Source: a bacterium (GTDB lineage Bacteria > Synergistota > GBS-1). Taken from it: DNA of 64,000 nucleotides. The translations under genes were made by a program, and so were the position numbers. Within the stretch, counting starts at the first letter, position 1, and each line of letters opens with the position of its first letter. Where the stretch lies: NCBI GenBank assembly GCA_030153785.1, contig JASKLF010000006.1, forward strand, positions 1-64,000, in the 5' to 3' direction. Under the pieces are notes generated by a model. That model was not told the DNA's origin. It saw only the letters and a program-made list of their open reading frames with translations, and ran no database searches. This document shows, in pieces, positions 1,851 to 28,465 of this stretch.

Positions 1851-3536
1851 TTACAAAACAATTCTCTCTTCATAGACCCCAAAAACATCTCTAAGAACAT
1901 CACAGATTTCGCCCTCGGTTGCATAGGCTTTAACAGCTTCTAAAAAATAAGGCATAAGGTTAGTGCTATCATCAGCCGCCGCTTTTCTGAGATCTTCCAA
2001 AACTGATTTTACCCTCAAATTATCTCTTCTTTGCTTGAGCTCTTTTAGCCTTCTAATTTGCTTTTCAGCAATGGAAGGATCTACTTTGAGAAGCTCAAGG
2101 TTTCCTAAATCCTCTTCTATTTGGAACTTGTTTACGCCAACGATTATACGTTCTCCCTTTTCTATCTCAAGCTGATACCTATAAGCACTGTCTTGTATTT
2201 CTTTTTGAACAAATCCCTTTTCTATGGCCTCCACCATACCTCCAAGTTCATCTATCTTATTTATGAGCTTTTCAGCTTCCTCCTCTATCTTGTTAGTTAG
2301 CCACTCTATATAGTAAGAACCTGCCAAAGGATCAACCGTATTAGTAACTCCACTTTCATAAGCAATTATCTGCTGAGTTCTTAGCGCTATCCTTACCGAC
2401 TCTTCCGTCGGCAAGGCTAAAGCCTCGTCATAAGAATTTGTATGAAGCGACTGTGTCCCACCTAAGACAGCTGCAAGAGCTTGAATGGTAACCCTAATTA
2501 TGTTATTCAAGGGTTGTTGAGCTGTAAGAGTAGAACCACCTGTTTGGGTATGAAATCTCAACATCATCGCCCGCGGATTTGTAACGCCAAATCTTTCTTT
2601 CATTATCCTTGCCCATAACCTTCTTGCCGCTCTAAATTTCGCTATTTCCTCAAGAAAATCATTATGAGCGTTAAAGAAAAAGGAAAGCCTTTGACCAAAG
2701 ACATTTGGATCTAACCCTTTTTTAATAGCCGCTTCTACATAGGCGATTCCATCTGCAAGAGTAAAAGCTACTTCTTGAATAGCAGTAGCTCCTGCTTCCC
2801 TTATGTGATATCCACTAATGCTAATAGTATTCCACTTAGGAACATGCCGGCTTCCAAACTCAAAAGTATCAGTAATCAACCTCATAGAAGGTTTGGGTGG
2901 AAAAATATAAGTCCCTCTTGCAATGTATTCTTTTAGAATATCGTTCTGAATAGTTCCAGATAGTTTATCAAAAGACACCCCTTGCTTCTCTGCCACAGCC
3001 AGGTACATCGCCCATATAATAGCAGCGGGAGCATTTATAGTCATTGAAGTGCTAACTTTATCAAGAGGAATTCCATCAAACAGAATCTCCATATCTTCAA
3101 GCGAATCTATAGCTACTCCCACCTTACCAACTTCCCCTTGCGCTAAAGGATGATCAGAATCATATCCTATTTGTGTGGGCAAATCGAAAGCCACGCTCAA
3201 ACCTGTCTGTCCCTGCTTTAAAAGATATTTATATCTTTGGTTTGACTCCTCCGCAGTTCCAAAACCGGCATATTGACGCATAGTCCATAATCTACCCCTA
3301 TACATCGTAGGATGGATTCCACGTGTAAAAGGATATTCTCCAGGAAAACCAAGAGAATCAAGATAATCCATCTCACCAAGATCAACAGGAGTATAAACTC
3401 TGTCTACAGGAATATCAGAAATGGTCTTAAACTCCTCTTTCATCTCTGGAGCTTTAGCAGTAACCTTACTAAGCACATCCTTCTCCCATTTCCCCCGAGC
3501 AGCCTTAATTTTATCTAAAGCCTTCTGGTCAAACAC
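1851..3536 (-). CDS. Methylmalonyl-CoA mutase large, substrate-binding subunit (split type)
   Basis: [62 protein letters not shown]. Start moved to GTG 3536 behind a G-rich SD. Confidence 0.95.
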
Positions 3537-3643
3537 ATCTACCCCCCCCAAGTAAGATTTATAAAATTTAAAAGTCAATTTAATTTTTTACAGTACATCC
3601 TTTATAAAATCCATACCTCAAAACACACAAAATGTCAAGATAT

Positions 3644-3684
3644 AAAAAGAACAGGGCTGCTTCCGAATCTCTAGAAGCAGCCCC
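3644..3684 (-). terminator. Intrinsic terminator between rtcB and the mutase operon
   Basis: Minus-strand stem GGGGCUGCUUCU / GGAAGCAGCCCU (3673-3684 with 3653-3664) followed by GUUCUUUUU. Confidence 0.8.
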
Positions 3685-3783
3685 TTTCCCTTCCCTTAAA
3701 AGGCTAGGGCAACTTATTAAATCACCGGCAGCTCCCCCTCGGGCAACACCCTGGGAAACGATGTTGCCCTTTTTGGAGGGAAC
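3644..3783 (-). promoter_or_regulatory. Candidate cis-regulatory structured RNA (riboswitch/attenuator-like leader of the mutase operon)
   Basis: Nested hairpin 3731-3783, a second copy of its 3' arm at 3706-3713, an antiterminator helix (3698-3706 with 3678-3686) and a terminator. G-U pairs work only on the minus strand. Confidence 0.5.
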
Positions 3784-5226
3784 TTAACCCTTTATAACCC
3801 CAATCGGTCTTAACCTAACTACCTTTTTAGACAATCCCGCTCTATCAACTATGTCAACAACCTTATCTATATTCTTGTAAGCTTCCGGAGCTTCCTCATA
3901 AAGAGTTCCTTTCTCACGAGCTTTGACCTTTACCCCCTTTTCCTCAAGCTCGCCAGTAAGATCTTTCCCTCTAAGATCCCTTACAGCAGCATGCCTACTC
4001 ATAACTCTACCTGCCCCATGACACGTAGAAGCGAAAGCCTCCTCCTCCGCTCTCTTAGTTCCTAACAGAACATAAGAAGGTGTTCCCATACTGCCAGGAA
4101 TTATTACAGGTTGCCCAACATTCCTATATATCTCCGGAACATAGGGAGAATTAGGACCAAAAGCCCTCGTTGCACCTTTCCTGTGAACACAAACTTCTAT
4201 TTCCTTACCATCCCACTTATGCCTTTCTATATGAGCAATATTATGAGAAACATCGTAAAGAAGCTTTAGATGGGCATCTTTGCCAAAAACATCATAAAAG
4301 ACTTCCCTTACCCAATGAGTTATTACTTCCCTATTAGCAAATGCATAATTTGTTGCTGCCGACATCGCTTGAAAGTAATCCTCTCCCTCTCTAGAATTTA
4401 TAGGAACACACGCAAGTTGTTGATCAGGCACCTTTATTCCATAATCCTTCATCTTTTTTCTCATTAACCTTACATAATCATCACATACTTGATGCCCCAA
4501 TCCTCTTGATCCACAATGAATCATTACCGTAACCAAACCCTTTTTCAATCCCCATTTATTAGCAATATCCTCAAGATAAACTTCCTCGATATACTGGACT
4601 TCAAGAAAGTGATTGCCAGATCCCAGAGTTCCAAGTTGGGGAGCTCCCCGCTCCTTGGCTTTTTTACTAACCTTATCGGGGTTAGCTCTTTTCATCCTCC
4701 CCCCTTCCTCAATACATAAAAGATCTTCCTTATTTCCGTATCCCATCTCAACTGCCCAATGTGCCCCTTTGTAAAGAACTTCGTCTAACTCACTATGCTT
4801 CAACCTTATTCTTCCTGTCTCGCCAACTCCACAAGGTACAGCAGAGAAAAGCCTATTAACAAGCAAGTCTATGCGCGATTCTACTTCCTCTTTTTCAAGG
4901 GGACTTACAAGGAGCCTAACACCGCAAGAAATATCGTAACCAACTCCTCCCGGAGATATAACCCCGTCTTCGATTCGCATTGCAGCAACTCCACCTATGG
5001 GAAAACCATATCCCCAATGAATATCAGGCATACCATAGGAATACCCTATAATACCAGGAAGCGTAGCCACATTCGCAACCTGTTCGTAGACTCGCTCCTT
5101 TTCCAAACCCTTCAGTATTTCTCTATCAGCATATATGAGACCGGGAACTCGCATCCCACTTTTATAATCTTTCGGTAAAAGCCACCTAACATCATCTATC
5201 TTCTTTAGAATATTCTCCACTCCCAT
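3784..5226 (-). CDS. rtcB: RNA 2',3'-cyclic/3'-phosphate--5'-OH ligase RtcB
   Basis: MPDIHWGYGFPIGGV, GYDISCGVR, GSGNHFLE, HCGSRGLG, HNIA, HRKGAT, PGSMG, STCHGAGR, EEAPEAYK. Confidence 0.95.
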   Translation of the reverse strand: MGVENILKKIDDVRWLLPKDYKSGMRVPGLIYADREILKGLEKERVYEQVANVATLPGIIGYSYGMPDIHWGYGFPIGGVAAMRIEDGVISPGGVGYDISCGVRLLVSPLEKEEVESRIDLLVNRLFSAVPCGVGETGRIRLKHSELDEVLYKGAHWAVEMGYGNKEDLLCIEEGGRMKRANPDKVSKKAKERGAPQLGTLGSGNHFLEVQYIEEVYLEDIANKWGLKKGLVTVMIHCGSRGLGHQVCDDYVRLMRKKMKDYGIKVPDQQLACVPINSREGEDYFQAMSAATNYAFANREVITHWVREVFYDVFGKDAHLKLLYDVSHNIAHIERHKWDGKEIEVCVHRKGATRAFGPNSPYVPEIYRNVGQPVIIPGSMGTPSYVLLGTKRAEEEAFASTCHGAGRVMSRHAAVRDLRGKDLTGELEEKGVKVKAREKGTLYEEAPEAYKNIDKVVDIVDRAGLSKKVVRLRPIGVIKG

Positions 5227-21246: not shown

Positions 21247-21598
21247 AAAGGCGGAAGCAACCCGTAAGCCGAGTTCTGTTCTAGTAGCCATCTCTCTAGG
21301 GAACGGATCGCTCCGTTCCTCAAGCGGCCTACCCGAGGGAAGGGCGAGCAACCCTATATCCCTCCTATTTGGCCTTGCTCCGGACGGGGTTTGCCAAGCC
21401 TATCAGGTCGCCCTGATAGCTGGTGGGCTCTTACCCCACCTTTTCACCCTTACCCCGCTTATTAGCAGGGCGGTTTGTTTTCTGTGGCACTTTCCTTGGG
21501 GTCGCCCCCACTGGGTGTTACCCAGCGTCCCGCTCTGTGGAGCTCGGACTTTCCTCAAGGGCTTTTACCCTTGCGGCTACCCAGTTACTTCCGCCTTT
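21247..21598 (-). ncRNA. rnpB: RNase P RNA (bacterial type A)
   Basis: Reverse complement contains GAGGAAAGTCCGAGCTCCACAG, GGAAAGTGCCACAGAAA, GGGTGAAAAGGTGGGGTAAGAGCCCACC, GGCAAACCCCGTCCGGAGCAAG and ACAGAACTCGGCTTAC. The ends pair as P1. Confidence 0.97.
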
Positions 21599-28273: not shown

Positions 28274-28297
28274 ACTTTTTCACCTCAATAGTAAAGC

Positions 28298-28465
28298 AAA
28301 ACCCCGCGGTGCCGTATGCGTGAGGTTTTGAACCCAGCCCCATAAAGTGGGTGCCCCTTCCGTTACTTCCGCGCCGGAACGCTTCCGTAACGGAAAGCAA
28401 GCTCCCTCTGGTTCTGGTGTTGGCTCAAAACCCTCAATCCCTACACACGAACACCGCAGGGACCA
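28298..28465 (-). ncRNA. ssrS: 6S RNA
   Basis: Ends pair into a long rod (CCCTGCGGTGTTCG...CGGCACCGCGGGG) with inner TTGAGCC/GGGTTCAA, GGGAGC and GGCACCCAC elements. Sits directly upstream of rarA, a common 6S neighbourhood, and has its own promoter. Confidence 0.88.

Follow-up and report, generated by a model that had tools for sequence, protein, structure and literature searches.

The window, as the whole stretch of DNA analysed here is called, comprises 64,000 nucleotides (nt) of contig JASKLF010000006.1 (assembly GCA_030153785.1) from a bacterium of the Synergistota lineage GBS-1. On its minus strand, in the gap between the stop codon of an rtcB-family RNA ligase gene (3784) and the gene for the large subunit of methylmalonyl-coenzyme A (CoA) mutase (likely start 3536), lies an element of two hairpins followed by an intrinsic terminator. 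We regard it as probably (at a probability of about 0.6) a regulated transcription attenuator of the ON type, in which the two hairpins would be docked by a predicted loop-loop kiss. The element is best read as a member of an uncatalogued, lineage-restricted attenuator family on the Na+-pumping pathway from succinate to propionate. An earlier reading of the window from its letters (the sequence-only reading) had described a cis element shaped like a switch, in which antiterminator and terminator overlap, and had predicted ON logic. This is supported here, and the overlap recurs in all six members of the family.

Six related elements with two hairpins and a terminator were found by covariance-model searches in the four genomes of the class, which are the genome of the window (G000) and the genomes G001, G002 and G003. 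Each of the four carries at least one copy. Three members precede mutase operons (G000, G001 and G003) and three stand directly before succinate CoA-transferase genes (G001, G002 and G003). The model built from the window sequence alone gave 44.7 bits in G001, 32.0 in G003 and at best 8.5 in G002. The mutase loci of G001 and G003 have the same layout as the window with a much changed sequence; in G002 nothing lies between the rtcB stop codon and the promoter-like site that precedes the mutase genes. With a model of three sequences, an unlinked intergenic match (34.2 bits, E 2.3e-4) was obtained in G003 immediately upstream of a CoA-transferase gene, together with two weaker matches that are coding. 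The element precedes three of the five CoA-transferase genes in G001–G003 (44.0, 34.1 and 29.6 bits). The CoA-transferase gene of G000 is cut by an assembly gap, inside which its leader falls. The full-length CoA-transferase of G002 passes the cut-offs for succinate CoA-transferase and ScpC, and its gene is followed by one for a symporter of the DASS type, which scores at the cut-off (198.5 vs 198.6). The paralogues before succinate CoA-transferase genes and the predicted loop-loop pairing go beyond what the sequence-only reading had described. A tree of RtcB and mutase from nine genomes (1006 columns) resolves the class as ((G000,G001),G003),G002, with supports of 79, 89 and 100. The mutase copy was either gained after G002 had split off or lost in G002.

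In the window, hairpin 1 (3731–3783) abuts the rtcB stop codon. It consists of the outer stem P1 (3783–3776/3738–3731), an asymmetric 6x2 internal loop and the inner stem P2 (3769–3760/3750–3741), and both stems lie where the sequence-only reading had placed them. Its loop L2 (3751–3759) contains UUCCC (3757–3753), the predicted kissing strand. A variable linker (3716–3730), 15 nt long here and about 7–20 nt across the family, leads to the antiterminator strand C (3706–3715), which pairs in all six members with segment E (3675–3684). E is common to the antiterminator and to the terminator, of which it is the left arm. C and E enclose the inner hairpin H3 (3688–3703), and together they make up hairpin 2; the sequence GGGAA of H3 (3695–3691) is the predicted kissing partner of L2. 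The intrinsic terminator (3644–3684) has a 12-pair stem (3684–3653) and a U-rich tail that runs to 3644. The minimum free energy of the region 3630–3800 (171 nt) is -73.5 kcal/mol (z -4.77), and none of 200 shuffles folded as well. A repeat or mobile element is ruled out by blastn, which finds a single copy in G000.

The six members share 38–67% pairwise identity and conserve hairpin 1, the C:E pairing and the terminator. Of 33 pairs, 27 have changed on both sides, 96.9% of the cells pair and 0 of 500 shuffles equalled this, in an alignment that was fitted to the model and is therefore biased towards its structure, with relatedness uncontrolled. Both-side changes affect five of the nine C:E pairs. 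Transcripts cut just after E and folded at 60 °C form a 5′ hairpin of 17–21 pairs and hairpin 2, with C:E around H3, in six of six cases. The C:E energy lies between -12.3 and -14.8 kcal/mol in every member, and mononucleotide shuffles are as good in 1–26 of 1000. C:E is taken as evidence because it has been kept through strong sequence divergence. The loop between P1 and P2 is asymmetric and A-rich, folding at 60 °C as 6x2 or 6x3 in three members and in other registers in three. Of a kink-turn, described in the available part of PMC10004510 as a 3-nt bulge followed by two or three G-A pairs, the canonical G-A/A-G tandem is not consistently seen across the members.

The conserved C:E pairing differs from the antiterminator that had been proposed for the window, which pairs UAGCCUUUU at 3706–3698 with AAGGGGCUG at 3686–3678. 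Both strands are present, but at 37 °C this register is 8.4 kcal/mol weaker than the C:E and H3 pairing of the family (-37.4 vs -45.8). The sequence-only reading had also proposed an anti-antiterminator, with a second GUUGCCCU at 3713–3706 competing for AGGGCAAC at 3770–3763, which amounts to an alternative pairing of C with the 5′ arm of P2. Both sequences stand at these positions. The pairing is strong in G000 (-15.2), but it is marginal in G001 (-8.7, 59/1000) and no better than shuffles in the four remaining members. In the three mutase copies it had looked conserved with hand-picked windows, for which 12, 1 and 0 of 2000 shuffles reached both pairings; the pairing is not treated as a switch, because uniform windows show its strength in G000 only. 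The CAG at the loop end, which had been listed as a feature, is not conserved.

Pairing between L2 and L3, the loop of H3, is predicted over 4–7 base pairs in all six members and joins a C-rich with a G-rich strand. The flanking pairs vary around the C/G core (U-A, G-C, A-U and U-G). The summed energy of the kiss was reached by 3 of 5000 loop shuffles and by none of 1000 under three choices of window, the windows having been chosen after the sequences were known. For the comparison regions the corresponding counts per 1000 shuffles were 57 (linker), 67 (E) and 649 (terminator loop). To form in the window, the predicted kiss would have to break the weak pairs at the top of H3. Among the contigs of four sequencing runs from one study, which are probably DNA, one (depth 4.85) differs at 3754 in such a way that a kissing C-G pair would become U-G, at a depth too shallow to count.

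The position of the element relative to promoters differs between its copies. Both copies in G003 have a sigma-70-type promoter just 5′ of them and no intervening gene (10/12 with an extended -10, and 11/12). The real-looking extended -10 promoter of the G003 mutase copy is found at the place equivalent to the TATAAA of the window (3796–3791, minus strand). This TATAAA, a weak -10 candidate already pointed out by the sequence-only reading, is present as described and no -35/-10 pair passes there, but it lies inside the last rtcB codons. The other four members begin at or near the upstream stop codon, have no evident promoter of their own, and transcription would enter them by read-through. Between the end of the terminator tail and the start codon of the CoA-transferase copies lie 15–21 nt, which leaves no room for a separate promoter. 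Downstream of the terminator, the window has a conserved promoter-like site, TTGACA-17-TATGGA (3610–3638, minus strand), the TTGACA of which (3638–3633) had also been noted before. Its -10 box is without the last T, and the site is therefore likely to be a weak basal promoter; at 134 comparable sites of the genome, the last -10 base is T in 81 and A in 17.

We propose the following course of events. Before the 3′ arm of the terminator is made, hairpin 1 and hairpin 2, with C:E enclosing H3, are predicted to be the favoured fold. As the terminator fold is the more stable one, its 3′ arm would displace C and terminate transcription unless the two-hairpin form is held. The default outcome is predicted to be termination via strand invasion. 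The kiss and a bound effector may stabilise the docked form, by which invasion would be delayed and transcription would proceed. Such read-through would be the sole route into the gene in the CoA-transferase copies. The mutase copies would have a basal downstream promoter and gain inducible read-through on top of it, coming from the rtcB operon in G000 and G001 and from the element's own promoter in G003.

Several observations weigh against a regulated switch of this kind. The terminator fold is favoured by 12.8–21.4 kcal/mol at 37 °C and by 6.1–12.6 kcal/mol at 65 °C, which is a large gap. Dinucleotide shuffles equal C:E in 457, 26, 1, 111, 57 and 13 of 1000, so that the pairing is weak in some members by this measure. 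The six sequences come from four related genomes, and the covariation statistic is therefore not independent. Of 178 columns, 14 are invariant, and just three of these are unpaired upstream of the terminator. Whether cognate kissing loops are preferred to swapped ones varies with the choice of window: by energy the count is 13, 126 or 2 of 720 permutations, and by run score it is 106 of 720. In several members the kissing bases compete with local pairs. The element is missing at two of the five CoA-transferase genes and at the mutase of G002. Terminator-type sites in 3300–4300 are not unusual in number (1 found vs 1.0 expected in shuffles), and an equally good upstream competitor accompanies 26 of 272 terminator-like hairpins of G000. 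The element stands above chance because it is conserved in relatives, and not because of a competitor within one genome. Mutase transcription that starts only from a promoter downstream of the terminator, together with constitutive termination and a lack of conservation or covariation in relatives, had been named beforehand as evidence that would speak against a switch. A promoter-like site of this kind does follow the terminator in the three mutase copies (TTGACW-17-TATGGA), and G002, which is element-free there, has TTGACA-17-TATAAA; conservation in relatives, on the other hand, was found.

The most probable alternative, although we consider it unlikely, is a constitutive or physically tuned terminator. 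The element would then be a leaky operon end, whose antiterminator sets a fixed or a temperature- or Mg2+-dependent level of read-through and whose hairpin 1 is stabilising. It would explain why the structure is conserved while the sequence is not, why four of the six members start within about 10 nt of the upstream stop codon or overlap it, why the gap between the OFF and the ON fold narrows as the temperature rises, and why a downstream promoter-like site is kept in the mutase copies. It is harder to reconcile with the two copies of G003, which follow their own promoter and have no upstream gene to terminate, and with duplication onto two genes of one pathway, which suggests a shared signal.

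A translation-coupled switch, in which a ribosome at the upstream stop codon melts P1 and the freed strands capture C and cause termination, is improbable. P1 does start at the rtcB stop codon in G000 and G001, and lies at or over the upstream stop codon in the CoA-transferase copies of G001 and G002; blocking the 5′ arm of P1 in G000 lowers the expected number of C:E pairs from 8.1 to 1.2. The same block at 37 °C, however, leaves C:E largely intact in the mutase copy of G003 (9.4 pairs) and in the CoA-transferase copies of G001 (7.9) and G002 (7.5), and lowers it just partly in the other two members, so that the in silico effect holds for the window only. In G003 the rtcB stop codon is about 25 nt away. 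By eye there is no conserved leader peptide, and the linker start codons of the mutase copies differ in frame, length and peptide.

A diverged Na+-sensing riboswitch related to Na+-I (DUF1646) or nhaA-I is very improbable, in spite of real similarities. According to the available part of PMC9337991, Na+-I also has two hairpins with a variable linker, the second of which overlaps the terminator, the same ON logic and Na+-linked downstream genes. In the present family the 3′ hairpin is likewise mutually exclusive with the terminator, and genes for a Na+-pump beta subunit and a DASS symporter are among those downstream. One member has AGGGUG in its 3′-hairpin loop, as in a tested construct. The resemblance to DUF1646/Na+-I suggested by the sequence-only reading is nevertheless not borne out. 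The Na+-I model RF03071 (cut-off 40.5 bits) has no match in 3300–4200 at E≤10, and the five remaining members gave no match to it at E≤1. In a genome search with this model, for which 150 of 588 candidates were scored, 0 of 12 matches exceeded the cut-off and none lay at the element. The tested constructs carry GGUUG..UUCAAGA, and PMC9337991, in the part available, shows that the AA at the base of P1 and the GG of the P2 loop are required. UUCAAGA occurs in none of the six members and GGUUGR in one; the P2-loop sequence GGGU(G/A) is found in the 3′-hairpin loop of one member only, and the five others have different sequences in that loop. The required core is thus missing here, the element is about twice as long, and it has a predicted Watson-Crick kiss. 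The nhaA-I (Li+-I/Na+-II) model gave no Rfam match, and the words GGGCCGC and CAGGUU of the construct in the available part of PMC9646797 occur in none and in one of the six members, respectively.

The least probable alternative is an independent trans-acting small RNA gene of about 145 nt with its own terminator, placed upstream by chance: both G003 copies form a complete unit of promoter, structured RNA and terminator, but all six copies have the same orientation as, and lie immediately upstream of, genes that belong to a single pathway, and conservation extends to the antiterminator. In the CoA-transferase copies there is no space for another promoter behind the terminator, and four copies have no evident promoter of their own.

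Comparison with known RNA systems supports the view of an uncatalogued attenuator; the published descriptions used here were available in part, and the comparisons refer to those parts. The general features of an intrinsic-terminator attenuator are found, namely a terminator 5′ of the gene and a conserved competing antiterminator. An Rfam scan of 3300–4200 at E≤10 gave eight chance-level matches only, all under their cut-offs, and no family fits the element. The DUF1646, nhaA and cobalamin models, which had been singled out beforehand for comparison, gave no match, and genome searches with RF00013 and RF00174 returned no match to the element. The element is not a member of the Na+-I, nhaA-I, cobalamin or guanidine-IV classes. 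The sequence-only reading had suggested a variant or a new class, and the six members form an uncatalogued family with no Rfam match.

That the element is not a cobalamin riboswitch had been anticipated, and no model of the RF00174 clan matches it. Two words of the cobalamin core occur in none of the six members, and the cobalamin riboswitches proper of the class genomes lie elsewhere. Cobalamin riboswitches (RF00174, PMC9600662) resemble the element in that a kissing loop couples an upstream domain to the expression platform and in that they precede mutA in other bacteria; the predicted kiss here joins other elements than L5 and L13. Guanidine-IV (GGAM-1, PMC7736828) is an ON switch acting on an intrinsic terminator, with two hairpins and a loop-loop pseudoknot, in which the rigid kissing hairpins are proposed to prevent the terminator. 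Its loops are near-invariant and its genes guanidine-related, whereas the present members are poorly conserved in sequence, have a separate strand C, match no guanidine-IV model and have no near-invariant loop nucleotides. The zipper-type attenuator cATT-pLS20 (PMC13401043) also has an upstream strand that pairs with a terminator arm around a long imperfect stem. It belongs to plasmid conjugation operons, and its abstract mentions no separate hairpin on the 5′ side that bears a kissing loop. The sucC-II motif (PMC8632094) is another lineage-restricted orphan candidate of six members before a succinyl-CoA enzyme, but it is known from Leptospira and from sucC only, and it is set beside the element here by its published description. 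No description of the element was found in the literature searched, including the available parts of the surveys PMC6429828 and PMC8632094, one of which covers a Synergistetes genome; the motif supplements of PMC5737381 (224 motifs) and PMC8632094 lie outside this comparison and could hold a related motif.

If the element is an ON attenuator, the docked form could be held in three ways. Direct binding of a small molecule or an ion is the leading candidate, at somewhat less than even odds. A bound protein is rather unlikely, and purely physical or kinetic tuning is less likely again. Antiterminator proteins were searched for in genomes that are 94–99% complete. CAT_RBD (BglG/LicT type) was found in none of five genomes, with the control detected. 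GlpP was found in three of five and is absent from the G001 matches, and HutP was found in three of five and is absent from the G002 matches. ANTAR was found in none of four genomes, in a search whose control gave no match anywhere. Among these four families, no protein tracks all four class genomes.

The most likely signal in this model is succinate or succinyl-CoA, which is favoured because the two targets share their pathway function. Alternatives are Na+ and B12; the case for B12 rests on two loci of another family (f6), where the gene for the same CoA-transferase follows cobalamin riboswitches. That the docked two-hairpin fold is itself a true aptamer for succinate or succinyl-CoA is unlikely. 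The few invariant unpaired bases weaken the idea of a small-molecule aptamer, as validated aptamers have many near-invariant bases (PMC7736828, available part). If it were true, the family would be the first class of riboswitches to recognise a dicarboxylate or acyl-CoA, and it would switch on the CoA-transferase and the operon of mutase and Na+-pumping decarboxylase in succinate fermentation. The sensing of acyl-CoAs has been named as a gap among riboswitches; a 2022 review (PMC10043782, available part) lists CoA and acyl-CoAs such as succinyl-CoA as being without a validated riboswitch class. The regulon of two genes makes the guess at a ligand testable with succinate, succinyl-, methylmalonyl- and propionyl-CoA, Na+ and B12. 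Even with a protein or a physical cue, the attenuator would be a third regulatory solution on one pathway in one phylum, beside cobalamin riboswitches and the leader of family f3 described below. Its interest is limited by a narrow range of one class and six copies.

The range of the family was assessed by further searches. Model R2 was run on a sample of 147 genomes from the phylum and found no member beyond the class, with 20 candidates scored per genome and absence not shown; the candidate filter is lossy, and a search at 150 candidates missed a 44-bit member. Model R3, applied to 56 sources consisting mainly of mutase and rtcB loci, returned the window and two weak matches only, and 28 CoA-transferase loci of other families gave no match. 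The sole R3 match outside the class (G061, 24.2 bits) lies inside a coding frame and was rejected. Of 27 weaker R3 matches within the class, 23 were inspected and found to be coding, plain terminators or a trp leader. The latter is a two-terminator leader before a trpE-like gene (G000 C9:70247-70383, locus L093, and loci L104 and L107) and represents a false match of the model. A fold-and-kiss scan of 272 terminators of G000 passed 65 on fold, and by eye no convincing paralogue was seen among those listed; the contig ends of G000 that were covered (20 of 28) contain no member. A metagenome scan with an rtcB pattern gave three loci, two of them near-identical to G003 and one ending 43 nt into the element, and added no new diversity.

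In the window, the rtcB gene (3784–5226) is the last gene of an upstream run of mur, ftsQAZ and radical-SAM genes, and all four class genomes retain its adjacency to the mutase. The element is followed on the same minus strand by the genes for the large (N-terminal) mutase subunit (1851–3536, with a likely GTG start at 3536), the small, B12-binding subunit (1440–1847), the MeaB GTPase (508–1443) and methylmalonyl-CoA epimerase (88–492), and by the first codons of an mmdA-like decarboxylase gene (1–87), which is truncated by the contig end. In G001 and G002 the mutase operon runs on into mmdA-like, biotin-carrier and Na+-pump beta-subunit genes, in agreement with the Na+-pumping decarboxylase pathway that had been assumed for the window. 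With the CoA-transferase, the mutase and decarboxylase genes cover the established biochemical route in which succinate is decarboxylated to propionate and Na+ is pumped. The beta subunit of G002 passes the cut-off for a Na+-translocating decarboxylase; its mmdA and mmdC score high yet below theirs. An identical mmdA-like 5′ end closes two contigs, at 1–60 of the window and at the 3′ end of G000 C12, and the decarboxylase genes are therefore likely to lie in an unassembled repeat. Searches for mmdA–D gave no further match elsewhere in G000.

Other leaders were observed on the same pathway. In family f3 (G007 and G005), leaders composed of a promoter, a nested hairpin and a terminator precede succinate CoA-transferase and mutase genes and are conserved between both genomes (L146 310–440, L147 240–400 and L148 290–470 on the minus strand, and L149 1770–1950 on the plus strand). 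A 5′ GGGUUA in the leaders of the CoA-transferase genes is able to pair with the arm of the terminator, with the hairpin enclosed between them. The layout is different from that of the element, with at most 12.7 bits against its model, and the likeness consists in their placement on the same pathway and does not imply homology. They are a candidate for a second uncatalogued attenuator type on this pathway. In family f6, cobalamin riboswitches lie directly before succinate CoA-transferase homologues (L134 1186–1348, and in tandem L143 897–1049 and 1167–1353), and loci L136, L141 and L145 have text that is similar to them by eye. A gene of the HutP family, with a conserved terminator leader downstream of it, occurs in G000 (C12:48040-48674, L182) and at L180 and L181. 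The leader precedes an mmdA-like gene in G000 and G001 and another open reading frame in G003, and it is likely to represent a HutP-type antiterminator outside a hut operon. Among the RNA genes, ARAGORN reported 43 tRNAs and no tmRNA on all contigs of G000, and the minus strand of the window carries the genes for the RNase P RNA (21249–21592) and the 6S RNA (28297–28465).

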